Virus record (IMG/VR): IMGVR_UViG_3300042517_000577
Location: 8,166 to 72,165 of that record
Strand: one strand, 5' to 3'
DNA: 64,000 bases
Origin: a virus
Positions 2,465 to 38,419 of this stretch are shown piece by piece. Both the position numbers and the translations under genes were made by a program. Positions within the stretch are counted from its first letter, which is position 1. The number at the start of each line of letters is the position of its first letter. Below the pieces are notes generated by a model. It did not search any database, had not been told where the DNA came from, and was given only the letters and a program-made list of their open reading frames with translations.

Positions 2465-2613
2465 TGCGACTTTATCTTAACGACAATCAAATTAAATTGA
2501 TTCTCTATTGCTTGGAACAACAAGCATATGAGTTCAATGAAAAGGAAAAGGAGGATTATACTGGAATCCTCCACTCTGTTGAAATTGCTCACGCATACGA
2601 TTACGATTCCTGA
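2464..2613 (+). CDS. hypothetical early protein (49 aa, not in track)
   Basis: TGATG coupling at both ends; MRLYLNDNQIKLILYCLEQQ... Confidence 0.65.
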   Translation: MRLYLNDNQIKLILYCLEQQAYEFNEKEKEDYTGILHSVEIAHAYDYDS

Positions 2614-2861
2614 TGAAACTTCAATCTAAAGATGGCAACATGGTGGTAGATTTCTATCCCATCAAAACACCATTTGGTAATGTATCTGATGAGTGGTTTA
2701 TTAAAATCCTCACCTTTATGGGTAAAACTCAATCCAAGAAGTTTCTCAATCGAGTTGAGATGAATCTTGAGATTGATGAATATATCAATCATACTATTCC
2801 TTATGAGGTTGTAGATTTCAATACTATTCCTCAACTTGCTAATCCATTTGCTACTGTCTGA
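2613..2861 (+). CDS. hypothetical early protein
   Basis: ORF track; coupled start. Confidence 0.7.
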   Translation: MKLQSKDGNMVVDFYPIKTPFGNVSDEWFIKILTFMGKTQSKKFLNRVEMNLEIDEYINHTIPYEVVDFNTIPQLANPFATV

Positions 2862-2863
2862 CA

Positions 2864-3070
2864 ATGCTACTTCAACTCACTGATATTGAATTTGATTTTG
2901 TTGATTCATCTGGAGAACTTCCTTATGATGAACAGGTTGCAGTTTCTAAATCTGTGATTGGAGAAGTATTTGAGGTTGATAGTGAGGATGAACTAGCAGA
3001 TGTAATATCTGATGAAACTGGGTGGTGTATTAAATCACTCGATTATGTTGTAATTGCCGAATCTAACTGA
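2864..3070 (+). CDS. hypothetical acidic early protein
   Basis: ORF track; DEISDxTGWC-like motif seen in small cyanophage proteins. Confidence 0.7.
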   Translation: MLLQLTDIEFDFVDSSGELPYDEQVAVSKSVIGEVFEVDSEDELADVISDETGWCIKSLDYVVIAESN

Positions 3071-3072
3071 CA

Positions 3073-3255
3073 ATGGAAACTCAAACTCGCAACGAACTGG
3101 TTGAAGCATATGTGGATCGTGTGCTTGATAATATGTCAACCAAAGATTTGATTCGAATTGTAGGAGATCAACTAGAAGAAAATCTTTCTGCATATACTGA
3201 TGCGGAACTCATTGCGGAAATTGATGAGTATTATCCTGATCTGTTGGAAACATGA
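3073..3255 (+). CDS. hypothetical acidic early protein
   Basis: ORF track; tight operon packing. Confidence 0.7.
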   Translation: METQTRNELVEAYVDRVLDNMSTKDLIRIVGDQLEENLSAYTDAELIAEIDEYYPDLLET

Positions 3256-3289
3256 TCTAACACGATCTCATTGAGACCAATGATGCGAT

Positions 3290-3346
3290 GTGCCACTTGT
3301 TTTTGTGGCACACTAAATGAGCACAGACCCCAAAAGGTGCTATATT
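3290..3346 (+). promoter_or_regulatory. Early promoter cassette 4
   Basis: GTGCCA(3290-3295)-N10-TGGCAC(3306-3311); TGC-TATATT (3341-3346); shares a 26 bp exact block with cassette 2. Confidence 0.75.
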
Positions 3347-3401
3347 AAGAGGGTGGAAGGGGTCAGACCCACCCACAAACGTTCAACTTACTCAATTTAC
3401 G

Positions 3402-3548
3402 ATGACTGTTTCTTTCTCTAAGGATGTGATGATTGGTATGCTCCGCAAGGGTGAGACTGGAAATCAAATTCTGGACATTCTTGATGTGATTGCACCTGAT
3501 CAAACTGAAGTTGAAGATAATTCTGTTACTGATGTTCCTACAGTCTGA
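3402..3548 (+). CDS. hypothetical early protein (48 aa, not in track)
   Basis: First ATG ORF after cassette 4; MTVSFSKDVMIGMLRKGETGNQILDILD... Confidence 0.6.
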   Translation: MTVSFSKDVMIGMLRKGETGNQILDILDVIAPDQTEVEDNSVTDVPTV

Positions 3549-3636
3549 TTAAATAGAAACGATAGAGGGCAAGTCCCTGTTATGTCCTGATGAGGCATAT
3601 CACACTTGCTCCATCAAACTAATTCTTTTTTTCGCA

Positions 3637-3822
3637 ATGTTTGTTTCTTGTCCTGTTTCATTTGATTTGATTGATGCGGAATGGTACGATGATATTGATG
3701 AAGCAAAAGAAGATGCACTTGATTGGAGTGTAGAATTGTCTGGTGAGAATGTGATTGTTTATGAGGCAATCAACAATGAAGGAGATTATTCCTTCAACAA
3801 ACTTTATTCCATCTGTGCCTGA
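3637..3822 (+). CDS. hypothetical acidic early protein
   Basis: ORF track. Confidence 0.65.
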   Translation: MFVSCPVSFDLIDAEWYDDIDEAKEDALDWSVELSGENVIVYEAINNEGDYSFNKLYSICA

Positions 3823-3829
3823 TACTGAA

Positions 3830-4075
3830 ATGTTTGATCAACTTCAATTCCAACCGCATCTGAATGGTATTCCTGGTGCGATTGCCGCACGACATAAGTT
3901 TGAGAATGATTGGGAGATTTCTGTAGTTGCTGGTCCTGGATTGTACGGGAAAGTTGAAGATGAGACATTTGAAGTTGGTATCTTCCGACCGAATGGAAAT
4001 ATGACTGAAGATGTATGTGGATGGAATACGAAACAGGAAGTTTCTGCAATGATGTGGGTGCTATCTCAACTGTAG
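3830..4075 (+). CDS. hypothetical phage protein
   Basis: ATG at 3830 chosen to avoid overlap; FENDWEISVV..GLYG...TFEV pattern of a widespread small phage family. Confidence 0.7.
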   Translation: MFDQLQFQPHLNGIPGAIAARHKFENDWEISVVAGPGLYGKVEDETFEVGIFRPNGNMTEDVCGWNTKQEVSAMMWVLSQL

Positions 4076-4188
4076 TCCAGCATACCCATCAGGGATGCTG
4101 ATAGGTAGAAGAACTCAAAGTGTAGCAGGGCGAACTACGGGACACCCTGCCCCCGTGCTATGATGAACGAAGTTCAGAGGATGAGACC

Positions 4189-4362
4189 TTGACCACACAG
4201 CAACGAATGGAAAAGCAATTCTTTATCAAGTTCATTTCTTTGATTGATGAAGTGCAAGGTAAATCTAAACTTCCTTCACAAATCAATTCAACTCGTAAGT
4301 CTGCCTGGGTTAAACAAACTCAAAATCCCAGACAAAAGAAAGATGCACTGTCCCGAGTTTGA
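4189..4362 (+). CDS. hypothetical basic early protein (57 aa, TTG start)
   Basis: Follows an extended -10 TGC-TATGAT (4159-4164) and a GAGG RBS. Confidence 0.5.
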   Translation: MTTQQRMEKQFFIKFISLIDEVQGKSKLPSQINSTRKSAWVKQTQNPRQKKDALSRV

Positions 4363-4400
4363 TCTTTAGTTTTTTTACTCTTCATACAAACAATCAACTG

Positions 4401-4562
4401 ATGCTCATCAAAACCACTTTCGACATTCAAACAAAACAACCTGTGTATGCTGTTTGTAATGCACAACATCAATGTGGTATGATTACAACTAACATTCTCA
4501 ATGCAATTAAAGCAGGACAATGTAAAGACTTCAATCAAGTTCAAACTCTAATCAATTCCTGA
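4401..4562 (+). CDS. hypothetical early protein
   Basis: In-frame ATG at 4401 within the track ORF. Confidence 0.55.
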   Translation: MLIKTTFDIQTKQPVYAVCNAQHQCGMITTNILNAIKAGQCKDFNQVQTLINS

Positions 4563-4650
4563 TGAAAAGAAAAGAAAAACTCCAACTGCTATCTAAAGCA
4601 ATTAACGGTAAAGAACTACTCATTATTCTCTCTGCATTTAATTGATACTC

Positions 4651-4914
4651 ATGGCAACTCAATTTTACTCTCTTAAGCAACTCAAAGAAAGAGTTAATTC
4701 TTTAATTGAACAGCAAGGAGAAGATGCTCCTGTTTCTTGGTGGATTTATACTAATGAAGATGTATTCACATTTGATGAAAATGGTAATGAACAATATCAA
4801 CCATTAGATGTATGTCAACAAGTGTTATCTAATTTGCAGGATTATGATTATATTCATTCTACAATCTTTGATGCAATTGAAGAAGAACTTACTCAAGTGA
4901 TTAAATCAAAATGA
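4651..4914 (+). CDS. hypothetical early protein
   Basis: In-frame ATG at 4651; ATGA coupling to the next gene. Confidence 0.7.
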   Translation: MATQFYSLKQLKERVNSLIEQQGEDAPVSWWIYTNEDVFTFDENGNEQYQPLDVCQQVLSNLQDYDYIHSTIFDAIEEELTQVIKSK

Positions 4915-5123
4915 AATCAAACAAAGTATTTCAAATTGAATTGTGTAAAGAGGATGCACAAAGAATACTTAATTCACTTGAATTACTGAAACGACAGACT
5001 AAACAACAAATCAATGATTGTAAGGATGATGAAACAAAGACGATTGCATGGTTAGAATGGTCTTACATCAGTGAGTTACATTATGATCTTGATTGTAAGT
5101 TTAGATTAGATACCTGGAATTGA
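4911..5123 (+). CDS. hypothetical early protein
   Basis: ORF track; last gene before the non-coding region. Confidence 0.65.
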   Translation: MKSNKVFQIELCKEDAQRILNSLELLKRQTKQQINDCKDDETKTIAWLEWSYISELHYDLDCKFRLDTWN

Positions 5124-5125
5124 TA

Positions 5126-5356
5126 CCCCTATATCGTCCATTTCAGTCTTGATTGATTATAGTTTTCCACAGGGTTGCGGAAAAGATTGTTTTGATTTCC
5201 ACATTTTTTTATTGTTAAATTTATTATGATGCGTGAATTGTATGTTTGTGTTGTTTGATTGTTAATGTGTTCTCTTATTGTTATCTTGGCGAACACAATA
5301 ACATATAAACAGTGATTTGTCAAGGGTTTACAGGACACCCCCTATATCGTCCATTT
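5126..5356 (+). repeat. 18-bp direct repeat cccctatatcgtccattt
   Basis: Exact copies at 5126-5143 and 5339-5356. Confidence 0.9.
5295..5323 (-). promoter_or_regulatory. Leftward sigma70-type promoter
   Basis: Minus strand TTGACA(5323-5318)-17bp-TATTGT(5300-5295). Confidence 0.55.
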
Positions 5357-5555
5357 TCACGTTTACAATACAACAGTCGTTTCGTGATACTGTAAATCAC
5401 TGAGAGGCATCTACAATCGTCTACAATCGTGTTTAATTTCGTATTAGGTATATCTGATCGTTTCGTTGTATTCTCGTGCCTTCCAGGGGATTTTTAATCG
5501 TTCGGTGTTAATCAATTCGTTATATGTGCCACTATGTGATACTAACAGTCACTCA

Positions 5556-8102: not shown

Positions 8103-8345
8103 ATGTCTAACTTACCAGTAGATCGAAACGAAGATTATATGTACCAAATGTGGGGTACAACAAAACTGACTACAGATTATAATGCACTCAATGAAAAAAG
8201 AGTTCTTCAAGAAATTGTAAATGATGACATTGGGAAGAAGCATCATTTGAAAGAACAAACTGATCTTCACCAGAGAATTCGTAATGATGAAGATTACGAT
8301 GATTGGGAGTATGGAACTGAACCTTCTTATGGTAAACCACAATAA
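8103..8345 (+). CDS. hypothetical cyanophage protein
   Basis: ORF track; MWGT and DYDDWEYGTEP motifs. Confidence 0.75.
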   Translation: MSNLPVDRNEDYMYQMWGTTKLTTDYNALNEKRVLQEIVNDDIGKKHHLKEQTDLHQRIRNDEDYDDWEYGTEPSYGKPQ

Positions 8346-29400: not shown

Positions 29401-29779
29401 CATTTCCAAGAGAATTAATCTCACAGAGTCTGCTACATCATTGAAAGTTCTCCACTCTGCCTATAGAAATGTTGATTCTGATATTAGAATTCTTTATAAG
29501 ATTTTTGATGATAAGTCACCAGATAACGATCAAATTTGGAGATTGTTCCCAGGATATAATAATCTAGATATTAATGGAAATATAATTAATTTTGAAGATA
29601 ATAATGGAAGACCTGATGAATTTGTTCCCGAAAGTTTAAAGGATGAGTATCGTGATTATACATATAGTATTGATAACTTGCCAGAATTTACTTCATTCTC
29701 AATTAAAATAGTTGGAACATCAAGAAATCAATCCTATTCACCAATATTAAAAGACTTGAGAGTGATAGCACTTAAATGA
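23408..29779 (+). CDS. VrlC / DUF4815-type large virion structural protein
   Basis: NLNVSPYYDDF, VQTRELNNLQS, APGADRLK, LARRTYDESG, GFFVDNF, DPLAQTF, DLRVIAL. Confidence 0.88.
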   Translation: MPQSTNLNVSPYYDDFSEDKNYYKVLFKPGVTVQTRELNNLQSILQSQIEKFGSKFFSNGGIVIPGNFAYDGNFSCIEIESTYKGVLVETYFENFVGKKIRGRNTGVTAKVEYVLSKDSADSTRKTTALYVKYLKSSSQDFDAEVFEDGEELVSEQDVTAGTTLFAQDSAVFRVLSPVDRTASSVGSSAKIEDGIYFIRGYFVDIEKNTVILDPYTNTPSYRVGLQITESIIDSNEDTDLVDNARGFSNYAAPGADRLKISATLIKKDIEDYNDDDFIELFRVENGIVRKIDQNDPYAFITDVLARRTYDESGNYYVRPYKVTARESLNDDFGNKGQYTSDEKTSGGLVPSDDLAVIKVSPGKAYVKGYEVPTTTTLIDYPKPRTTKTVDSSSSNFRTGNILKVNNIEGIPKIGITTDSSVLLHKVRLDDNHEVVADNQIGIARVYDYEYDNNSFSDESSEANLYLFDIQTYTEINTSATISGITNGDYIQGQYSNASGYVKSNSGQDITLYQVSGTFIINEPLVVCGISTITTIDTVVDYSIKDIKSVSSEDGTSFTADSVLSKKKNIDGPFNIVVSSGIATITSQDGSSFASGFKVSDIISYTIPSSTLPTYSGISTVGAGGTSITIDNTLVASVSNVCSNSLGSTGTLNKIKLVRPRIKNYNDSEFYAPLENPNVSEVSFLNSSIFVKKYYTGLTISSGTLDLPTLENTNFVYADFDEERYCVVLNDGTNISLSGDDFEITAGGKEASFDGLSPDGTANVIVTQIKSDISSKFKKLDRCQSVSITRSKYNPASNGLTYSRVYGRRVEDEEISLNYPDIFEVHGVFQSTNSDDPQLPELTISGLNTNSLIIGEKIVGQTSGAVAICVATPSSSRVSFIYKSKNTFNFNEIVTFEESETQATVTNITFGCDNILSEFIVDNGQRKHFYDIGRLIRKASSREPSKKLTIIFDYFKFKTTDSGDIISVNSYPSELYGDKIPVFKGVRNTDTIDTRPRVADYTSSSRSPFDYISRKFTSASNNSANILKSNESVVFDYKFYLPRSDKLTLDKDGNFNIVLGEPSEFPIVPKVSKEVLDVATIRSSAYVFDVNKDIEIELVDHKRYTMSDIRDLETRIENLEYYTSLSLLEVATQNLLIEDADGFNRFKCGFFVDNFKSYDGADQNNSIFRAEISNDSLKAETVRTEIDLVQTSATNLQVTGNSLTLKYSEKEYQKQPFASKLVNINPFNIVTWSGRMELLPDSDRWEVRVDVDDRSPVQGSFWQAFTAERTRTERSNIRYIRSRNIGFVATRIKPINKFDFLFDSRNLSNNSLESTYAFPKLVQVSGVTGSFEVGETVSGSDSNGNTASFRLCTPNHKSGTYNNPSSIYNVNPYSPNTSIPELYGPESTILNVDVDSLSDISASQFFGNITEGMSLVGQSSGALATVSSVELVSDDNGALIGAFFIPNPEESDVTFETGNTTAKVVSSQGSSAAEANFISEGERITTTRITYADPLAQTFNVPEEQGVFVTSVDIFFGSKDDTIPVELQIREVSSGIPGGPDKIVGSLSKVLNPSEIGISADGSVATNFKFDNLTRLEGGREYAVVLISDCDSYNVWVSRVGQVEISTASLPEIQKIIIGKQPSLGSIFKSQNGSTWTPTQEEDLKFTLNRAEFSNTGGTAFLTNAVLSAKSLQNKLPTNPLAALSSSADSPYNDGRHILVYHPNHGMYSENNKVTISGIDPDGLPVKLTSQLDKDSSGPIDLSSISGFNVFGDIPVEAANPGYIKINDEIISYEEATGGQLINITRGLLGTVAANHPLNSKVYKYEFNGIDLREINTTFDSIIDPTIDSYYVQISNSGPVFESTKFGGGSNAYATKNIQFSMLEFSEDFVIKYEATSVSSSVRTVSSTSVSSLPGTEVSFADQGFDAVSITGVNEFKTPRMVCSRVNELEYLPSSQFTDRKSFTVQLNLDTSNTYLSPIINLDSASAFAENYRINKGVADYKIDSRINSNVNDPNAFIYISKRINLTESATSLKVLHSAYRNVDSDIRILYKIFDDKSPDNDQIWRLFPGYNNLDINGNIINFEDNNGRPDEFVPESLKDEYRDYTYSIDNLPEFTSFSIKIVGTSRNQSYSPILKDLRVIALK

Positions 29780-30006
29780 TAAAAAAATATGCTAAAGTTG
29801 ATGGGTATCCAAATCTAATCAGAGATTTGGATACTAATGCAATAATTAATACAGATTCTGTAGAATCTGTCAATTATGATCGAAATAGAAGACTAAGGCA
29901 AAAAAAGGATAGTGAATTCAATAAGATCAAATCCGACATAGTCGAATTGAAGTCTTCAGTTGAAGAGATTAAAAATTTACTTAAGGAGATTATTGATGGA
30001 AAGTGA
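29776..30006 (+). CDS. conserved small coiled-coil protein
   Basis: VDGYPNLIRD..TNAIIN motif typically follows VrlC. Confidence 0.8.
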   Translation: MIKKYAKVDGYPNLIRDLDTNAIINTDSVESVNYDRNRRLRQKKDSEFNKIKSDIVELKSSVEEIKNLLKEIIDGK

Positions 30007-30178
30007 TTCCGTACAATTAACTAGTATTTCAAAGTTATTTGAATATGAAAAAATATCTAGGGAAATTGAAAATTGTAATGATATAAATGAATTGAAAAAT
30101 ATCTCCAAGTGTTATGTTAAATTATATTTTGCATTAGAAGAGATGATTCAGAATTTAAATCTAATGCCAACGGAATAA
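29996..30178 (+). CDS. hypothetical protein
   Basis: In-frame ATG at 29996 with GGAG RBS; LFEYEKISREI. Confidence 0.7.
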   Translation: MESDSVQLTSISKLFEYEKISREIENCNDINELKNISKCYVKLYFALEEMIQNLNLMPTE

Positions 30179-30200
30179 ATAACTAAAAAGTGTTTGAATA

Positions 30201-31031
30201 ATGGCAAAACCTGCATCAAGACAAGGATTAATCGATTATTGCTTAAGAAAACTTGGTGCTCCTGTATTGGAAATTAATATTGCAGAAGAGCAACTTGATG
30301 ATTTAGTTGATGATGCTCTGCAATATTTCCAGGAGAGGCATTTTGATGGTGTTGAAAAAATGTTTCTCAAGTATAAATTAACTCAAGAAGATAAGGATAG
30401 AGGTCGTGCTAGAGGTGGAGAAACATCTGCTGGTATAGTTACTACATTCGGGACTTCTGGAATTGGCACATTTGGTTGGGAAGAAAATAGTAATTATATT
30501 CCAGTTCCAGAAACTATAATCGGAGTGGAGAGGGTATTTAAACTTGACAATAGAACAATTTCATCAAACCTTTTTAATGTAAATTATCAATTGTTCTTAA
30601 ACGATATTTACTGGTTTAGTTCAACAGAACTGTTAAACTATTATGTCACAAAAAGATATCTTGAAGATATTGATTGGATAGTCAATCCAGAAAGAAGAAT
30701 TAGATTTAATAAAAGGCAAGATAGGTTATATTTGGATACAAGTTGGGATACTCTACAAGTAGATGATTATCTACTGATAGAATGTTATAGAATTTTAGAC
30801 CCAAATGATTACACTAAAGTGTGGAATGATTCATTCCTTAAGTTATATCTCACAGCATTAATTAAGAGGCAGTGGGGACAAAATCTAATTAAATTCCAAG
30901 GAGTAAAACTTCCTGGTGGAGTTGAGTTGAATGGAAGACAAATTTATGATGACGCATTGAAGGATCTTCAGGATATCCAAGATCGTATGATGCTAGAATT
31001 TGAATTACCTCCTATGGATTTAATCGGATAA
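30201..31031 (+). CDS. gp13: neck protein gp13
   Basis: YCLRKLGAPVLEIN, KRQWGQNLIKFQGVKLPGG, ELPPMDLIG. Confidence 0.95.
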   Translation: MAKPASRQGLIDYCLRKLGAPVLEINIAEEQLDDLVDDALQYFQERHFDGVEKMFLKYKLTQEDKDRGRARGGETSAGIVTTFGTSGIGTFGWEENSNYIPVPETIIGVERVFKLDNRTISSNLFNVNYQLFLNDIYWFSSTELLNYYVTKRYLEDIDWIVNPERRIRFNKRQDRLYLDTSWDTLQVDDYLLIECYRILDPNDYTKVWNDSFLKLYLTALIKRQWGQNLIKFQGVKLPGGVELNGRQIYDDALKDLQDIQDRMMLEFELPPMDLIG

Positions 31032-31032
31032 T

Positions 31033-32115
31033 ATGTTAAATTCATTTTTCCTACAAGGATCCAACTCCGAGCAAGATCTCGTTCAGGATCTAATTAACGA
31101 GCAATTAAAAATTTATGGGGTAGATGTTTATTATCTGCCCCGACAAATTTTTTCGGAAGGAAAAGTAATCAGAGATGTAATTTATTCCAAATTCAAAAAT
31201 GCCTTTCCAATAGAGGCATACGTTATGAATTATGAAGGATTTGATGCAAATAGTGTTTTGATGAGTAAATTTGGAGTTAAAGTTACTGATGAAATGTCTC
31301 TGATAATTTCCAAAGAAAGATTTGAACTTTATATATCAGAGTTGATGAAGAATATAGAAAATGTAAAGAGTTCTTTAAGACCAAATGAAGGAGACTTAAT
31401 TTATGTTCCATTAAGTGATAGTTTAATGGAAATTAAGTATGTCGAAAATAGAAAACCATTCTACCAACTTCAAAAGAACTATGTTTATGAATTGAGGTGT
31501 GAAGTTTATGAAATTGAAGACGATGAAATAGATACTGGTCTTAATGACATAGATTTAAAATTGAAGGATCTTGGATATACTTCAGTATTAACTTTATCTG
31601 CAATTGGATCTACTGCTACAGCATATACTTCCGTTTTAAATGGAGGAATTCGAAAAATAGATGTTATTGAGGGTGGATATGGATATACTTCATCCCCAAC
31701 TATCATAATTGAGGAACCAGAAACTGGAATTCAAGCACAAGTAGTTGGAATAGTAACAGAAAAGAGAAGTTTCTTAACAAAGAAAAGTTTAGATAAAATT
31801 TATATCACAAATCCTGGATCTGGATATACATCAACTGACTTGCCATCAATATCTTTCTTTGGGGGAAGTGGAACTGGAATAAAAGTAGTACCTACAATAT
31901 CCGATTATGGTAATATTGGAATAGTTACGATTACTTATCCAGGTTCAGGATATACTTCAGCACCTACAGTTACATTTTCACCTCCACCAGCAGCTGCCTC
32001 TGCTACTGCCACAGTAGATACGTTAGTTGAAGATAACTTTTCATATCCAATGAGTTTTGATTCAATAGAAGTCAAATTTGATTCCACCGAAATTACTTTT
32101 GATACTGAATTATAA
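31033..32115 (+). CDS. gp14: neck protein gp14 (N-terminal part, with an atypical FD-repeat C-terminus)
   Basis: EQDLVQDLINEQLKIYGVDVYYLPR, RPNEGDLIY, PFYQL; lacks the usual DFSExNPFG tail. Confidence 0.9.
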   Translation: MLNSFFLQGSNSEQDLVQDLINEQLKIYGVDVYYLPRQIFSEGKVIRDVIYSKFKNAFPIEAYVMNYEGFDANSVLMSKFGVKVTDEMSLIISKERFELYISELMKNIENVKSSLRPNEGDLIYVPLSDSLMEIKYVENRKPFYQLQKNYVYELRCEVYEIEDDEIDTGLNDIDLKLKDLGYTSVLTLSAIGSTATAYTSVLNGGIRKIDVIEGGYGYTSSPTIIIEEPETGIQAQVVGIVTEKRSFLTKKSLDKIYITNPGSGYTSTDLPSISFFGGSGTGIKVVPTISDYGNIGIVTITYPGSGYTSAPTVTFSPPPAAASATATVDTLVEDNFSYPMSFDSIEVKFDSTEITFDTEL

Positions 32116-32141
32116 ATATTTTTAAAGGTATCCTCAAATAG

Positions 32142-33860
32142 ATGGCAAAGCAAAATATAAACATAGGATCATCTGCAAATGATAGAAGTGGAGATTCTCT
32201 TAGATCTGGTGCATCTAAGATTAATCAAAATTTCAATGAGATTTATTCAACTTTTGGGGATGGCAATAGTCTAAACCAAGTATCTATACAAGGAGTTCAG
32301 GGAACTAGAGGTTCTCAAGGAATTCAAGGAACAATCGGTCAAGGAGTTCAAGGAATTCAAGGTCCTGCTGGATCTGGTGAAGGTGGAGGTTCTCAAGGAG
32401 TTCAGGGAATTCAAGGTCCTGCTGGATCTGGTGGTGGAGGGGGAGGAGGAGAATCATACTGGCAACAAACAGCAGCGGGTATTCATACACTTTCTAATGT
32501 TGGTATTGGAACTACAAATCCAACAAGTGCTCTTACAGTTAGTGGGAGTTTAAGTGTTTCTGGCATTTCCACATTAAGTTCAAATGTATCAATAGGTGGA
32601 ACTGTCTCTGTTAATGGTGGAGTAAAACTTGTAACAAATAATGCGACAATTGTAGGAACATCAGGAACAGTAGGAGAAATTAAGAGAATTGGTGGAGCAC
32701 CATTCTTCTATGATGGAAGTGCTTGGAGAGAATTTGTTCTTTCTTCAGGTACTCCAGTTTCTGTTCCTGCAGATACTGAATGGGATAGTGTTGTTTTCAG
32801 AGCAACTTTTGATGATAATTATACTGATGCAAAGTTTGGAGCAACTCCAGTTTATGTAAGTGCTGGTTCTAGTATTGTAGGTGCTGCAGTTACAATTGGA
32901 ACTGGTGCTTATAGAAATGATGGTTCTATTGGTGCTGGTATTTCTTATGCTTATAGGTCAGAATATGATTTTACAGGTTCTTGGACTATTGAGTTTTGGA
33001 TATATGTGGATTCTGGTCCTGTTTATTATAATCCAACATCTCCAGTATCTTTAGTTTCTATGCATTCAACTACTGGTATTGGTACTAGTGGAAATTGGTC
33101 TCTTGCTATGTGGAGGGATTTATCTAGTAATACACGAATTAATTGGTTTAACCAAAATGGTGTTGGAGCTGAATTATATATTCAAGCAGGTTCTGTTTGG
33201 GACAATTCATTTGTAGATAAATGGAATCATTTTGCACTTGTTAGGCAAGGTAATAATGGATCTCTACATTTTTATATTAATGGTACTGAAACTTCTAGTA
33301 CTATAGGTAATACTACAATTGATAATGATATACTCAATATAAGTACTAATGGATTAAATGTTGGAGGTGCTACTACTTTTACAGTTGGAAATTTAACTTT
33401 TAATTCAAATTCATCTGCTGATGTAATAATTGATGATATGAGAATTTCCTGTGGTGTTGGAACTGCAGGTCAAAGATATACATCTATTGGAATTAGTACT
33501 TATGCAACATTCACTCCTCCAACTACTGCACTTCCAACTACTGGAACACTTTCATCTTATGTTCAACCACCAGGAGACAAGTATGGTGAGATTACTTTAG
33601 GTGGTTCACCAACCTGGAGAGGAACTTCTGGAGTTACTGTTTCTCAACAATCTAGTGGAAACTATCGTGTAAGTTTTGCAAGTACTTATACTAATAAAAA
33701 TGATTATTATGTCCTATCTCAAGGTATGGATCAAGGATTTGCTTCTTATGTTGGTATTGCTAGATCTACAACTCACGTAGATTTATCAGTCAATAGACAG
33801 AGTAATGATGCTGCAGTTGATACTGGATCCCTTGCAGTTCAGATTAAAAATCATATTTGA
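32142..33860 (+). CDS. fibre protein: gp9/gp10-type N-terminus, collagen-like repeats, LamG/ConA-like domain
   Basis: N-terminus MAKQNINIGSSANDRSGDSLRSGASKINQNFNEIY resembles T4 gp10. G-X-Q repeats; WTIEFW, WNHFALVR, IDDMRIS. Own late promoter TATAAATA at 32111-32118. Confidence 0.85.
   Translation: MAKQNINIGSSANDRSGDSLRSGASKINQNFNEIYSTFGDGNSLNQVSIQGVQGTRGSQGIQGTIGQGVQGIQGPAGSGEGGGSQGVQGIQGPAGSGGGGGGGESYWQQTAAGIHTLSNVGIGTTNPTSALTVSGSLSVSGISTLSSNVSIGGTVSVNGGVKLVTNNATIVGTSGTVGEIKRIGGAPFFYDGSAWREFVLSSGTPVSVPADTEWDSVVFRATFDDNYTDAKFGATPVYVSAGSSIVGAAVTIGTGAYRNDGSIGAGISYAYRSEYDFTGSWTIEFWIYVDSGPVYYNPTSPVSLVSMHSTTGIGTSGNWSLAMWRDLSSNTRINWFNQNGVGAELYIQAGSVWDNSFVDKWNHFALVRQGNNGSLHFYINGTETSSTIGNTTIDNDILNISTNGLNVGGATTFTVGNLTFNSNSSADVIIDDMRISCGVGTAGQRYTSIGISTYATFTPPTTALPTTGTLSSYVQPPGDKYGEITLGGSPTWRGTSGVTVSQQSSGNYRVSFASTYTNKNDYYVLSQGMDQGFASYVGIARSTTHVDLSVNRQSNDAAVDTGSLAVQIKNHI
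32289..32450 (+). repeat. Collagen-like coding repeat with a 54-bp duplication
   Basis: caaggagttca(a/g)ggaattcaaggtcctgctggatctggtg at 32340 and 32394. Confidence 0.9.
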
Positions 33861-33906
33861 TGATTGTATTAGTGAGTAATAAATAAAATATAAACACATT
33901 AACACT

Positions 33907-34563
33907 ATGAGGACAGTTCCTGGATCAGGTGCCATATTGTCACCAACATTTAATAGTGAATATGGAGTATCCTCAATAGATGTTATTGATGGGGGATCTG
34001 GATATGCAACTACAGATCCTCCAAAAATAACAATAAACAATACTCAATCTCCAATAGAAGGGGGAATATTTTATCCAATTATTGAAAGTGGAGAAATAAG
34101 TTCTATTGTTATAATTGACCCAGGGGTAGGTTATTATCCAATATCCTCAAGTGTAACTGCCACTGGAATTGCATTTTTAAATTCATCTGGATCAGTTTCG
34201 GATATTAAAATTACCAATGCAGGTTACGGTTACACACAACCTCCGACAATTACAATTTCTGGAGGTTCCACAGTTTCTAGTGGAAACTTTATCTTTGGTG
34301 AGAATGTAACATCTTCAATTACTAACATAACTGGAATAGTTCAAAATTGGGATCCGACTACAAGAGAATTAAAAATATCAGGAATTGGATCAGATTTTGT
34401 AGTTGGTGAAATTATTACAGGAGAAACATCAAATTCCACATATATTATTTCTAATTATCAATCTCCAACATCTTCTACTAAATATGATGATAATGAAAAT
34501 ATAGAGAACGAAGCAGACCAAATCATAGATTTCAGTGAATCCAATCCATTTGGAGACGTGTAA
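33907..34563 (+). CDS. structural protein carrying the gp14-type C-terminus
   Basis: GSGY...PxITI repeats; ends DNENIENEADQIIDFSESNPFGDV; late promoter AATAAATA at 33878-33885. Confidence 0.75.
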   Translation: MRTVPGSGAILSPTFNSEYGVSSIDVIDGGSGYATTDPPKITINNTQSPIEGGIFYPIIESGEISSIVIIDPGVGYYPISSSVTATGIAFLNSSGSVSDIKITNAGYGYTQPPTITISGGSTVSSGNFIFGENVTSSITNITGIVQNWDPTTRELKISGIGSDFVVGEIITGETSNSTYIISNYQSPTSSTKYDDNENIENEADQIIDFSESNPFGDV

Positions 34564-34596
34564 TTTATTAAATAGTATAGTTAAGGGAATTTTAAA

Positions 34597-35451
34597 ATGC
34601 TTGGAGATTATTTTTATAATAAATGTATCCACAAAACAGTAGTTGCTTTTGGAACTTTATTTAATAATATAAAGATACAGCATAACGATGCTAATGATAA
34701 TTCTTTATCAACTTTTAAAGTTCCATTAGCATATGGACCAATACAAAAGTTTTTAGCTAGAGTAGAACAATCTCCAGATGGGAATAGGAGAGTTGCAACT
34801 ACTCTTCCTAGAATGTCATTTGAAATGATTTCCCTTGAATATGCCTCTGCAAGAAAATCATCAACAATTCAAACTTTCAAAGGAACTAGTTCTGTAGATG
34901 GAAAGGAAATAAAAAATATTTACGTTCCAGTTCCTTATGATATTGGGTTTGAATTGACTATCGTTTCAAAAATACAAGATGATTGCCTTCAGATTATAGA
35001 ACAAATTATACCATTCTTCCAACCATCATTTAATTTGAGTGTTAATTTGATCTCCGAAATAAACGAAGTCAAGGATATTCCTGTTATATTAAATAGAATT
35101 AATTTTAGAGATACTTATGAAGAAGATTTTAATCAGAGAAGACTAATTTATTATACATTAAGTTTCACAGCAAAAACTTATATCTTCAATCAAATACCAG
35201 ATGATTCTACTGGATTAATTAAGAAAGTTCAAGTTGATTATGCTACAGATGCAATAAAGAATGCCAAGAGAGAGATGAGATATACCGTAACTCCAAAGGC
35301 ACTTCAAGATTATAATGATGATGGAGTTATTAACTCACTCGATGATCCTCTAATTGAATATGGAGACGATTTTGGTTTCAATAGTCAATTAGAAAATTTT
35401 GGAGACTTCAAAGAATTTAGTACTTCACTAGGAACTGATGTTGATGCGTAA
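34597..35451 (+). CDS. gp15: tail sheath stabilizer/terminator gp15
   Basis: AFGTLFNNI, VPLAYGPIQKFLAR, LPRMSFEM, QIIEQIIPFFQP. Confidence 0.95.
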   Translation: MLGDYFYNKCIHKTVVAFGTLFNNIKIQHNDANDNSLSTFKVPLAYGPIQKFLARVEQSPDGNRRVATTLPRMSFEMISLEYASARKSSTIQTFKGTSSVDGKEIKNIYVPVPYDIGFELTIVSKIQDDCLQIIEQIIPFFQPSFNLSVNLISEINEVKDIPVILNRINFRDTYEEDFNQRRLIYYTLSFTAKTYIFNQIPDDSTGLIKKVQVDYATDAIKNAKREMRYTVTPKALQDYNDDGVINSLDDPLIEYGDDFGFNSQLENFGDFKEFSTSLGTDVDA

Positions 35452-35453
35452 TT

Positions 35454-35870
35454 ATGAAAGAAAATAAATTCAATTCTATAGAACAATCACTTAATATCGA
35501 AACTAGTTTGGCTCCCGTCGAACCAGTTGAGGTATCTTCTGTAGAAGTTCCAGATGATCCAAGAAAAGATTATGAATATACTAGAGCAAATTTATATAAT
35601 TTGATAGAAAAGGGTCAGGAAGCAATTAATGGTATTTTGGAGGTAGCACAAAGTTCAGATCATCCTAGAGCATATGAAGTTGCTGGACAACTAATTAAGT
35701 CTGTTGGAGATGTGAGTGACAAATTGTTAGATCTTCAGAAGAAAATGAAAGATCTTGATGCGCCAGTGAAGGGAAGTCCAACTACAGTAAATAATGCTTT
35801 GTTCGTAGGATCGACAGCAGAGTTATCAAAACTTATAAAACAAGGACTTCTAAATAATATCGAAGAGTAG
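35454..35870 (+). CDS. gp16: terminase small subunit gp16
   Basis: DYEYTRANLY, SDHPRAYEV, NNALFVGSTAEL. Confidence 0.95.
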   Translation: MKENKFNSIEQSLNIETSLAPVEPVEVSSVEVPDDPRKDYEYTRANLYNLIEKGQEAINGILEVAQSSDHPRAYEVAGQLIKSVGDVSDKLLDLQKKMKDLDAPVKGSPTTVNNALFVGSTAELSKLIKQGLLNNIEE

Positions 35871-35878
35871 TATTTACT

Positions 35879-36763
35879 ATGAAAGATCCCAAGGGTCCAA
35901 CCAGACCATATAAAACTGCAGAAGAAATTGCCAAGAAGCATAATGTTTCATTGGATTATATCAATAAGCAAGTTGAACTTGGAACTGAAGTTGAGTTCGA
36001 GCATACTACTAGTAAGAAAAATGCAGAAATAACTGCTCTACAGCATTTAGAGGAACTTCCAGATTATTACAGTAGATTAAAAAAGATGGAAAAAAAGAAA
36101 TCTTCAGTCAAAGAATCTTTAGATAATAATAGAGAACTTCTTGCTGGAAAAAGATATTGCTTATTATGCAACAAGCACGAGACAGAATCAGAGTGCTCTT
36201 GGGGTCCTAATATGTGGAAAAAGTATAGCATTGCTTCCATTCATCCAACAAATGAATCTGCAATTTATGAAGATCATAAAGAGATTGCAAGTGGAAAGAA
36301 GAAAGATGAAGAAGGATATATGGCAAGAATTGAATTTGATCAAATTGAAAGGTCAATTAATATTTTAAGAAAATTAGTTAAGAAGGGAGATCAGCAATTA
36401 CCTGCTTGGGTACAATCAAAAATCACTAGAGCAGCAGACTTTATTGATACTGCAGCAGAATATATTTCTAGTGACGAAGATGTATCTGAAGGAAAAACAT
36501 ATTCTCAATTTATGACTGAAGTTGCTGCTTGGCAGAGAAAGGAAGGAAAAAATCCTGAGGGTGGACTTAATGAAAAGGGGAGAAGATCTTATGAAGATGA
36601 AAATCCTGGAAGTGATCTCAAACCACCTCAACCCGAAGGTGGACCACGTAAAAGATCTTTCTGTGCTCGTATGGGAGGAATGCCTGGTCCTATGAAAGAT
36701 GAAAAAGGTAGACCTACTAGAAAAGCACTAGCACTTAGAAAATGGCACTGTGGAAAAAAATAA
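35879..36763 (+). CDS. multi-module hypothetical protein (DUF5661-like, LPAWVQSKIT module, DUF6321-like)
   Basis: VEFEHT..ALQHLEELPDYY; LPAWVQSKIT; AAWQRKEGKNPEGGLN..SFCARM..LRKWHC. Confidence 0.75.
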   Translation: MKDPKGPTRPYKTAEEIAKKHNVSLDYINKQVELGTEVEFEHTTSKKNAEITALQHLEELPDYYSRLKKMEKKKSSVKESLDNNRELLAGKRYCLLCNKHETESECSWGPNMWKKYSIASIHPTNESAIYEDHKEIASGKKKDEEGYMARIEFDQIERSINILRKLVKKGDQQLPAWVQSKITRAADFIDTAAEYISSDEDVSEGKTYSQFMTEVAAWQRKEGKNPEGGLNEKGRRSYEDENPGSDLKPPQPEGGPRKRSFCARMGGMPGPMKDEKGRPTRKALALRKWHCGKK

Positions 36764-36766
36764 ATT

Positions 36767-38419
36767 ATGTCTAGTCAGAATGTATATCTTGGAAACCCTT
36801 TACTAAAAAAGGCAAATACTCCAATTGAATTTAGTGAAGATCAGATTTTAGAATTTGTTAAGTGTAAGAATGATCCCGTATATTTTGCCAAAAACTATAT
36901 TAAAATTGTTACCCTAGACCACGGATTACAACAGTTTAAACCATATAATTTTCAGGAAAATTTAATCAATAATTTCCATAATAATAGATTTAACATTTGT
37001 AAGATGCCTAGACAGACAGGCAAATCTACAACTGTTGTGTCATACTTACTTCATTATGCTCTTTTTAATGACAACGTAAACATTGCTATCCTAGCAAACA
37101 AGGCATCTACTGCTAGAGATTTGCTATCTAGGTTACAGACTGCCTATGAGAACCTTCCAAAGTGGTTACAGCAAGGAATTCTTGCCTGGAACAGGGGTTC
37201 TATGGAACTAGAGAATGGTTCTAAAATTCTTGCAGCATCAACATCAGCGTCTGCTGTTCGAGGTGGTTCTTATAATATCATTTTCTTGGACGAATTTGCG
37301 TTCGTTCAAAATCACTTAGCAGATGATTTCTTTGCGTCTGTTTATCCTACAATTTCTTCAGGTCAATCTACCAAAGTTATAATTGTTTCTACCCCCCACG
37401 GTATGAATCACTTTTATAGACTTTGGCACGATGCTGAACGTGGTAAGAATGAGTACGTTCCAACTGAAGTTCATTGGTCGGAGGTTCCTGGACGAGATTC
37501 AAATTGGAAAGCACAAACAATTGCGAACACATCAGAACAGCAATTTAAAATTGAGTTTGAGTGCGAATTTTTAGGATCGGTAGATACTTTGATTGCCCCA
37601 AGCAAATTGAAGAGTTTGGTATATGATTCTCCAATTAAAAGAAATAAGGGATTAGATATATATTTTGAATCGGAAAAAACTAGAGATTATGTAATTACGG
37701 TAGACGTTGCCAGAGGTGTTGGTAATGATTATTCTGCCTTCGTTGTGTTTGATATAACATCGTTTCCGCATAAAATAGTAGCAAAATACAGGAACAATGA
37801 AATCAAACCAATGCTATTCCCAAGCATCATTCACGAGGTTGCTAAAGCGTACAATAGTGCTTTTGTCCTTTGCGAGGTCAATGATGTCGGAGACCAAGTA
37901 GCTTCTATTTTAAATTATGATCTAGAATATCAAAATGTTTTGATGTGCTCGATGAGAGGTAGAGCAGGTCAAATAGTAGGACAAGGTTTTTCTGGAAAGA
38001 AAACTCAATTAGGTCTTAAGATGTCTAAGACTGTGAAGAAGGTCGGTTGTATGAACCTCAAGACTATGATTGAGGAAGACAAACTAATCTTCAATGACTA
38101 TGAGATCATCAGTGAACTAACTACATTCATTCAGAAACACAACTCATTTGAGGCAGAAGACGGTTGTAATGATGATTTGGCAATGTGCCTAGTGATCTAT
38201 GCTTGGTTGGTCGCACAGGACTATTTCAAAGAACTTACCGATCAAGATGTTAGGAAGAGATTATACGAAGAACAGAAGGAGCAAATAGATCAGGATATGG
38301 CACCGTTTGGATTTATCTTGACTGGAATTGATGATGATAATCAATTTACAGATGCTGATGGGGATTTGTGGAAGGTTGATGAGTATGGAGACAGATCGTT
38401 TATGTGGGAATATAGGTAA
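36767..38419 (+). CDS. gp17: terminase large subunit gp17
   Basis: Walker A PRQTGKST, Walker B IIFLDEFA, VSTPHG, nuclease VDVARG...DDL. Confidence 0.98.
   Translation: MSSQNVYLGNPLLKKANTPIEFSEDQILEFVKCKNDPVYFAKNYIKIVTLDHGLQQFKPYNFQENLINNFHNNRFNICKMPRQTGKSTTVVSYLLHYALFNDNVNIAILANKASTARDLLSRLQTAYENLPKWLQQGILAWNRGSMELENGSKILAASTSASAVRGGSYNIIFLDEFAFVQNHLADDFFASVYPTISSGQSTKVIIVSTPHGMNHFYRLWHDAERGKNEYVPTEVHWSEVPGRDSNWKAQTIANTSEQQFKIEFECEFLGSVDTLIAPSKLKSLVYDSPIKRNKGLDIYFESEKTRDYVITVDVARGVGNDYSAFVVFDITSFPHKIVAKYRNNEIKPMLFPSIIHEVAKAYNSAFVLCEVNDVGDQVASILNYDLEYQNVLMCSMRGRAGQIVGQGFSGKKTQLGLKMSKTVKKVGCMNLKTMIEEDKLIFNDYEIISELTTFIQKHNSFEAEDGCNDDLAMCLVIYAWLVAQDYFKELTDQDVRKRLYEEQKEQIDQDMAPFGFILTGIDDDNQFTDADGDLWKVDEYGDRSFMWEYR

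Follow-up and report, generated by a model that had tools for sequence, protein, structure and literature searches.

The locus described here lies in a 64,000-nt stretch of viral DNA (the window; positions 8,166 to 72,165 of IMG/VR virus record IMGVR_UViG_3300042517_000577). In it, the gene for gp14, a neck protein of T4-like phages, is split in two around a fibre gene. The window belongs to a 72-kb viral contig, for which CheckV estimated a completeness of 37%. The stretch is carried by 24 lake or freshwater metagenome runs from 24 studies, with 10 of the 24 possibly representing the source sample, and there was no RNA data set among the sequencing runs carrying it. The phage appears to be a T4-like cyanophage relative from lake water, a host assignment made by similarity. 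We use the label "cyanophage" because the terminase is 80 to 82% identical to the terminases of Synechococcus T4-like phages; psbA was not found within the 72-kb fragment.

All genes of the locus are on the + strand, in the order gp13, gp14N, fibre, gp14C, gp15, gp16, a DUF5661/DUF6321 protein, and gp17. The gp13 neck protein (30201 to 31031; phrog_211 head-tail adaptor Ad2, E = 5.6e-46) is followed by three open reading frames (ORFs). ORF1, here called gp14N (31033 to 32115; 360 amino acids [aa]), contains the neck core (residues 1 to 170), three GSGY beta-repeats, and a tail derived from the inserted DNA. ORF2 (32142 to 33860) encodes the 572-aa fibre, and ORF3, or gp14C (33907 to 34563; 218 aa), stands directly ahead of the tail terminator gene gp15 (34597 to 35451; Pfam T4-gp15_tss, E = 2e-78). 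The three ORFs are arranged as an earlier model-made reading of the window, referred to below as the sequence-only reading, had described them.

The two flanking ORFs are the halves of a single gene. The Pfam family T4_neck-protein (PF11649) matched residues 10 to 166 of gp14N with 90.1 bits against a cut-off of 25, and phrog_460, the family of cyanophage gp14, matched both gp14N (E = 3.8e-95; family positions 16 to 300) and gp14C (E = 6.3e-31; positions 227 to 376), with gp14C also matching positions 3 to 87 of phrog_708. When aligned to the intact 479-aa gp14 of SynMITS9220M01, residues 1 to 328 of gp14N covered residues 1 to 350, while residues 21 to 216 of gp14C covered residues 273 to 477 (E = 1e-32). 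The C terminus of gp14C is DFSESNPFGDV, and the pattern D-F-x-E-x-N-P-F-G was invariant in 43 of 43 intact gp14 proteins. The suspicion that the third ORF carries the normal end of a cyanophage gp14 was therefore borne out by profile, alignment, and motif. The locus lies between gp13 and gp15, the usual position of gp14. The family trait of a core and a C-terminal helix and hook on one polypeptide is absent, the two parts being on ORFs 1.8 kb apart, and the gp14 of the window is thus a split member of the T4-type neck protein family.

We mapped the breakpoints by blastn against viral contig L036, which, like contig L037, encodes an intact 458-aa gp14; their flanks are 98% and 94% identical to the window, respectively. 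Window positions 29486 to 31986 correspond to L036 positions 1 to 2501 and positions 34216 to 37000 to L036 positions 2577 to 5362, leaving a cassette of 2,229 bp (31987 to 34215, + strand) in place of 75 bp. Residues 1 to 318 of gp14N are 98.7% identical to the intact protein, and residues 104 to 218 of gp14C are 100% identical. By this mapping, gp14N owes its last 42 residues to the cassette, the fibre gene came with it, and so did residues 1 to 103 of gp14C, which comprise a gp7-type N terminus and two repeats. The left breakpoint comes after ...YPGSGYTSAPTVTFSPP and the right one before NAGYGYTQPPTITIS, so that both abut GSGY repeat units, which agrees with the proposal that the cassette had entered through shared GSGY repeats. 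The 25 residues of L036 that were displaced are homologous to, though diverged from, the final 25 residues of the cassette. These observations confirm that gp14 is split around an inserted fibre gene.

The tail that the cassette adds to gp14N ends in ...SFDSIEVKFDSTEITFDTEL, with phenylalanine at 7-residue spacing. Three tandem 7-residue units, each ending in an aromatic residue next to an acidic one, can be seen directly in the sequence. We refer to residues 339 to 360 (32047 to 32112, + strand; YPMSFDSIEVKFDSTEITFDTEL), which hold the three heptads, as the candidate docking "plug"; it is conserved in contigs L005, L006, L035, L156, and L157.

The junctions are not a product of misassembly. 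In all four runs that were not flagged as a possible source, Logan contigs bridge both of them; X11, for example, covers window positions 30900 to 32753 and 33660 to 34900 with zero differences. A 2,390-bp contig from another project (L156) spans the tail, a 561-aa fibre, and the start of gp14C at 98% identity, and so contains the whole cassette arrangement in one piece, while L006 and L034 each cover one junction. Contigs of other lake runs diverge near both breakpoints, leaving loose ends at window positions 31942 to 31974 and 34248, which hints at alternative gp14 alleles co-occurring in the same samples. Nei-Gojobori estimates of dN/dS were 0.22 to 0.32 in the tail, 0.19 and 0.30 in gp14C's two parts, and 0.18 in the fibre's N-terminal domain. 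The ORFs are intact and these segments are under purifying selection, in keeping with the earlier view of a functional rather than decayed locus. The dS values were 0.35 to 0.74 at the cassette ends compared to 1.1 to 1.3 in most flanking segments. In contig L089, gp14 is broken into 250 and 97 aa without cargo, which is probably a frameshift or assembly error and is unlike the cassette split.

Split loci recur with different cargo. We found at least six with the order gp13, gp14N with plug, a gene of gp9/gp10 N-terminal type with or without more genes, gp14C, and gp15. The cargo measures 572 aa in the window, 561 aa in L156, 673 aa in L157, and 278 aa in L186, and consists of several genes in L035 (403, 462, and 258 aa) and L229 (755, 633, and 113 aa); L005 is a further, partial split locus. 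In all split loci, gp14N has 359 to 365 aa and a related tail, a gp9/gp10-type N terminus opens the first cargo gene, and gp14C has 218 to 227 aa and starts with M-R/K-x-x-PGSGA. The family PF07880 (gp9/10_N) was passed by the first cargo gene of the window, L035, L157, and L186; that of L229 has the motif without a Pfam match at E ≤ 1. The 633-aa cargo protein of L229 (L229:6733-8634), lying between the gp14 halves, is a subtilase (Peptidase_S8, E = 5e-27). A large protein database contained 11 further clusters of stand-alone gp14C, 218 to 227 aa long and 45 to 75% identical to that of the window, and all 11, like the window's own, begin with M[RK]xxPGSGA.

Nevertheless, the split form of gp14 is rare. 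Among 89 gp14 loci classified in viral contigs, 81 were intact, 6 were partial, and 2 were split, one of these being a cargo-less probable frameshift; the scan used the full gp14C alignment and was swamped by the generic C-terminal pattern. Among the matches listed, no isolate in the phage collection had a stand-alone gp14C, and a megablast search of the locus against isolate phages gave only a 13% match. The titles and abstracts of the literature, subscription papers not included, yielded no split cyanophage gp14 and no plug motif.

The split state does not follow the history of the gp14 core. In a tree of 51 gp14 cores, which left out L156 (partial), L039 and L040 (same protein ends as L038), 7 of 47 intact sequences, and the forms of 769 to 1019 aa, the split state required at least five changes and was interleaved with intact genes in two deep clades. 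On this tree, the core of the window was identical to that of the intact L036. The interleaving and the identity with L036 together indicate that the split state moves by recombination and not with the core. Other departures from the usual length of 450 to 490 aa were seen: the intact gp14 proteins of L085, L092, L106, L111, L117, L130, and L144 have 769 to 1019 aa, about double that length, which suggests large in-frame expansions or fusions in this neck protein. In L007 (L007:3598-6209) and L008, an intact, plug-less gp14 of 458 aa is followed by a very collagen-rich 402-aa gene of gp9/gp10 N-terminal type and then by another gene, so that the junction between gp14 and gp15 is also an insertion site.

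The inserted gene has the architecture of a fibre. Its N-terminal domain (residues 1 to 46; 32142 to 32279) matched PF07880 over residues 3 to 42 with 33.5 bits, above the cut-off of 25, and was nearest to residues 2 to 41 of T4 gp10 (E = 2.2e-6; T4 gp9, E = 0.008), so the gp9/gp10-type N terminus recognized by the sequence-only reading is genuine. Fibre ORFs with gp9/gp10-like N termini have been described in cyanophages (Sullivan et al. 2005), and the same paper gives wac as unidentified. In the window, the collagen-like repeats expected to follow are short and interrupted (residues 51 to 97; 32292 to 32432), with Gly-X-Y runs at residues 51 to 68, 71 to 79, and 83 to 97 (6, 3, and 5 triplets); there is no long uninterrupted run, and Pfam Collagen (PF01391) did not match the fibre at E ≤ 1. 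The homologous fibre of L157 reached 24.5 bits against this family, below its cut-off of 27.2. A LamG-like domain had also been predicted. PF13385 (Laminin_G_3) did not match the fibre at E ≤ 1, so the prediction found no backing in the protein's own Pfam matches, but the head does seem to have the fold. Its core (residues 219 to 439; 32796 to 33458) was modeled with a pLDDT of 70 to 89 and resembled lectin-like binding domains in Foldseek (E of about 3e-8); its superposition on the GH43 structure 5hp6 had a root mean square deviation of 4.6 over 243 columns with a TM-score of only about 0.36. The head has 234 homologues at E ≤ 1e-10, and among the 120 matches listed, 8 carry PF13385 and 27 carry PF07880. 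Residues 129 to 571 belong to phrog_16570, and the nearest homologue from an isolate, S-SCSM1_230, belongs to the baseplate/fibre module and bears the annotation of a concanavalin-like virion protein. The model thus points to a ConA-like jelly-roll fold for the head, which may bind glycans.

Both genes downstream of gp14N had been credited with a late promoter. The first, a late-promoter-like box at 32111 to 32118 (+ strand) that overlaps the stop codon of gp14N, is an exact match to TATAAATA and is kept at the gp14N/fibre junction in L005, L006, and L035. The second, ahead of gp14C (33878 to 33885, + strand), reads AATAAATA with one mismatch and is also present in L035. Exact TATAAATA boxes occur seven times in the window, all on the + strand (23303, 32111, 38431, 43386, 47194, 59298, and 60511), a number that is not above chance (8.1 expected). 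In the six frames of the whole window, the patterns for the tail, the gp9/gp10 N terminus, and R[TV]xPGSG each occur once, all at the split locus, and there was no other PF07880 gene or plug in the 72-kb contig. Elsewhere, proteins of 83 to 84 aa consist of little beyond a gp9/gp10-type N-terminal domain (L011 to L015, L018, L019, L028, and L029); some of them come directly after large proteins whose ends are S74-chaperone-like or of another kind and lack the heptad tail.

Could the tail of gp14N be a peptide on which the fibre docks? In T4, the gp9 trimer binds a docking loop of gp7 (residues 258 to 292), as stated in a 2026 preprint, and the N terminus of gp12 binds the N-terminal domain of gp10, according to a 2010 review. 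The premise that both gp9 and gp10 attach to extended segments of gp7 is thus upheld as far as gp9 is concerned; the available parts of PMC13742148 and PMC11406892 contained nothing useful on contacts between gp7 and gp9 or gp10. The T4 docking loop reads STDVRW-SADDVRF-SSQDITF. We searched T4 with 14-residue probes that a program had drawn from four cyanophage tails, T4 itself contributing nothing to them. Of 6,139 positions from gp5 to gp17, the best was gp7 residues 265 to 278 (25.5), followed by gp12 residues 12 to 25 (22.25) and gp7 residues 258 to 271 (18.0), with the next at 14.75; gp7 265 to 278 also came first among 19,731 six-frame positions. The gp12 segment of T4 (L047), ESRYVKFDPTDTNF, resembles the plug heptads of cyanophages.

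A survey of gene ends gave a similar picture. From 80 metagenome loci chosen via the MRTVPGSGA N terminus, we took the unique last 32 residues of ORFs and contrasted ends having a gene with the gp9/gp10 N-terminal motif at most 120 nt downstream with all other ends. A tail-probe score of at least 12 was reached by 40 of 54 ends ahead of such a gene but by only 1 of 152 others (medians, 17.4 and 1.75), the lone high scorer among the latter being of the FYYD...DDNPPY type. Three [FYWMH]D pairs at 7-residue spacing were present in 10/54 versus 0/152 ends, and a looser heptad pattern was present in 26/54 versus 1/152. The association of such tails with gp9/gp10-type genes, for which the sequence-only reading had suggested a survey, therefore holds in cyanophage loci.

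Finally, we modeled three copies of fibre residues 1 to 60 with residues 321 to 360 of gp14N. The ipSAE values were 0.80, 0.81, and 0.80, compared to 0.25 for the best of three controls, and the model passed a mark that 58 of 80 solved complexes had reached, along with 2 of 110 mismatched pairs. The pLDDT of the partners was at least 68, and the runs agreed in at least 97% of contacts. In the model, residues 19 to 40 of the tail peptide, which make up the candidate plug, touch residues 6 to 24 of all three fibre copies, and consecutive heptads lie on different subunits, with K28/F29 on residues 17 to 20 of copy 3 and T35/F36 on residues 17 to 20 of copy 2. A confident peptide-trimer interface is thus predicted, as had been anticipated.

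The origin of the cassette can be traced to baseplate genes. Residues 1 to 103 of gp14C were 43 to 52% identical (tblastn) to the N termini of proteins annotated as gp7 or baseplate wedge in S-SSM7, S-SZBM1, P-TIM40, and other phages. The MRTVPGSGA start did arrive with the cassette, as claimed, but it is not new, being the N terminus of cyanophage baseplate proteins annotated as "gp7". In P-TIM40, PTIM40_100 (ending in ...KYDTTTVTYDAT before the stop codon; also given as ...TDFSSTAVKYDTTTVTYDAT) is followed by a gp10-like gene, PTIM40_102 (MARTVPGSGA...), and gp8. S-SSM7 and Sf-FS3 have a giant protein with the end ...FYYDTNRVNSTVTRMDTTTATHDDNPPY ahead of a 340-aa protein of PF07880 type and a giant protein starting with M..R(V/T)TPGSGA, and in L159 a protein of 2,690 aa ending in ...SSFSYNIPETFDTQILTFDSLNQTMDQN stands ahead of a similar pair. 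GSGY repeats are common to gp14 and these proteins. The composition proposed earlier for the cassette (tail, fibre, and N terminus) therefore has counterparts in baseplate modules. On sequence grounds, the cassette reads as a copy of both junctions of a baseplate triple with the fibre between them, and the cyanomyovirus baseplate triple is likely the donor type. In S-SCSM1 and S-TIM5, the nearest isolate homologues of the fibre head adjoin neither the tail nor an MRTVPGSGA start, and a tblastn search of phages with the 46-aa tail alone gave no match at E ≤ 10.

The structure predicted for an intact gp14 indicates how the protein might tolerate the cut. In the L036 model (mean pLDDT, 74.5), residues 1 to 160 match T4 gp14 in chain 0 of 9mkb (E = 1.5e-9, 29% identity over 160 columns), followed by a confident array of beta-repeats (183 to 357), a small beta-domain (373 to 428), a helix (432 to 445), and the DF.E.NPFG end. 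The split falls between beta-units of the array. In T4, the C-terminal helix and hook of gp14 (residues 212 to 245) embrace gp15, and fibritin docks on gp13. By analogy, the repeat array of cyanophage gp14 would protrude as a loop held at its two ends. A cut between its beta-units would leave gp14N anchored via the core and gp14C via the hook, for which the acidic helix and conserved DFSESNPFG end of gp14C (34480 to 34560, + strand) are the candidate, by model, motif invariance, and T4 analogy.

We propose that a baseplate-type cassette recombined into gp14 and that its plug docks a trimeric fibre on the neck, and we regard this as the probable explanation, though at some distance from certainty; the interpretation of the sequence-only reading is to this extent supported by sequence, comparative, and modeling evidence. 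A cassette from the phage's own kind of baseplate/fibre module would have recombined into the beta-repeats of gp14 via shared GSGY repeats, turning one gene into three. Of these, gp14N would retain the whole neck core and end in a plug of about 22 to 42 aa with three heptads (aromatic-Asp-x5). The fibre would be a trimer in which a gp9/gp10-type N-terminal "socket" is followed by a short collagen-like stalk and then a lectin-like head, and gp14C would combine a gp7-type N terminus with the retained acidic C-terminal helix and hook. A single plug would thread the trimeric N-terminal domain, one heptad per subunit, as the T4 gp7 loop does with the gp9 trimer. Model and motif together suggest this binding, and by analogy the peptide of gp14N probably holds the fibre on the neck. 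A gp14 hexamer could then carry up to six neck fibres, with gp14C held on the particle by its hook on gp15.

Several observations count against this proposal. The survey loci are related and were chosen via the MRTVPGSGA protein, and their counts are therefore not independent events. Because T4 baseplates have been solved, the pass of the complex model may reflect memory or likeness rather than independent support, and the model was built on shallow alignments. A hidden Markov model (HMM) of the tail found nothing significant in T4, P-TIM40, S-SSM7, and other phages (T4 gp7, E = 6.6), with PTIM40_100 as the best outside match at a domain E of only 0.085, so the case for homology between plug and docking loop is built on rank tests and short motifs. 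In a scan of viral contigs with the N-terminal domain alignment, which returned the same 28 loci when repeated, only 4 of 25 loci with an N-terminal domain match, all from one sequence group, had the plug directly upstream; away from loci of cyanophage type, PF07880 genes thus mostly lack such a tail ahead of them, and in L007 and L008 a PF07880 fibre directly follows an intact gp14 with no plug. Split-gp14 phages are known from metagenomic contigs alone. The contig is an estimated 37% of the genome, and a baseplate partner with a similar plug may exist. The end of gp14C and the C terminus of T4 gp14 are not significantly similar (BLASTP E = 1.3), for which reason the anchoring of gp14C by a hook is something we infer.

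It is possible instead that the cassette merely landed in a recombination-prone region, that the fibre docks on a baseplate protein like its homologues, and that the tail is a remnant of the donor gene which the phage tolerates. In pelagi- and cyanomyophages, a hypervariable host recognition cluster is known between VrlC and gp14, homologues of the fibre head reside in baseplate/fibre modules (S-SCSM1 and S-TIM5), and in L007 the gp14 ahead of such a fibre is intact and lacks the tail. Since dS is lower at the cassette ends than in the flanks, part of their conservation could also reflect recent transfer. Yet the tail is in frame, its dN/dS is 0.22 to 0.32 at dS values of up to 0.74, and it is kept in all six split loci despite their different cargo. 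Moreover, the tail is predicted to bind the adjacent fibre, and the 72-kb contig offers no other PF07880 gene or plug. We consider a leftover tail unlikely, while granting it some weight.

Alternatively, the fibre trimer could clamp the two halves of gp14 together, with both the plug and the gp7-type N terminus of gp14C binding its N-terminal domain; the link from neck to tail would thereby be restored, and display of the fibre would be secondary. The part of gp14 that in T4 locks onto gp15 is here on gp14C, whose N terminus is conserved as much as the plug and follows PF07880 genes in donor loci. A single plug already touches all three subunits in the model, however, and of the 64 loci with a called ORF, 30 have no PF07880-motif gene ahead of the MRTVPGSGA-type protein. 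A clamp therefore seems improbable to us. That the locus is a chimeric assembly or a dying gp14 pseudogene, as its origin in a metagenome-assembled contig of an estimated 37% completeness and the frameshift-like, cargo-less break of 250 and 97 aa in L089 might suggest, is extremely improbable given junctions bridged in 4 of 4 runs, a stretch found in 24 runs of 24 studies, the independent contigs L006, L034, and L156, and three intact ORFs under purifying selection in diverged lineages, and for the window this reading is refuted by the L156 span and the run-contig bridges.

Returning to the proposed docking of a trimeric fibre on the neck, we considered a broader version of it. The heptad plug and the PF07880 socket might be a general, portable coupling code of T4-like phages, in which a peptide of about 25 aa with three aromatic-Asp heptads, from one or three chains, docks any trimer of the gp9/gp10 N-terminal type. 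The plug would usually end the gene upstream of the socket gene in cyanomyoviruses; plug, socket, and fibre would recombine together onto new anchors, in this case gp14; and split and intact alleles would coexist in lakes as a host-range polymorphism. To this generalization we give slightly less than even credence. If it is true, attachment maps could be read from gene order, and a sequence rule would predict pairs of fibre and anchor in uncultured T4-like phages, for which cryo-electron microscopy has been needed so far. An essential, conserved virion gene could then be split to serve as a landing pad for receptor-binding fibres; the protruding repeat loop of gp14 could be cut because both of its ends stay anchored, the core on gp13 and the hook on gp15. 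The idea of a "host recognition cluster" would thereby extend into a core structural gene. As a short trimer-docking peptide, the plug would also be a candidate for a natural tag with which to attach proteins to phage particles.

Farther downstream, the 294-aa protein with DUF5661 and DUF6321 (window 35879 to 36763) lies between the genes for the small and large terminase subunits, and its C-terminal 85 or so residues match many PHROG families of unknown function.

The candidate plug can be compared to the docking loop of T4 gp7, an extended peptide that likewise has three 7-residue repeats and that binds a trimeric PF07880 N-terminal domain as the plug is predicted to do. In T4 the peptide lies inside a baseplate wedge protein as a loop, whereas in the window it forms the C-terminal tail of a neck protein, and with an HMM E of 6.6, homology between the two is not statistically established. 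There is also a likeness to the T4 pair of gp12 and gp10, since the fibre N-terminal domain is nearest to gp10 and gp12 residues 12 to 25 were the second-best probe site. However, the gp12 ligand comes from the three chains of a trimer; in the window, one chain has three tandem repeats.

Fibres on the neck are known from other phages. T4 fibritin on domain III of gp13 and gp82 of A-1(L) on the gp5 pentadecamer are both described as trimeric and anchored to the neck by their N-terminal domains. They have other anchor proteins and what appears to be another N-terminal domain, the anchor gene is unsplit, and there is no plug or socket of baseplate type. The baseplate triples of cyanomyoviruses (PTIM40_100/101/102 and SSSM7_101/102/103) have the same order of tail protein, PF07880 protein, and M..R(T)xPGSGA/GSGY protein as the split locus, but they are part of the baseplate/fibre module, where giant structural proteins take the place of gp14. 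The host recognition cluster, as far as the accessible text describes it, is likewise a hypervariable island of fibre genes beside gp14. In contrast, the variable cassette described here lies inside gp14, with the candidate docking peptide fused to gp14 itself.

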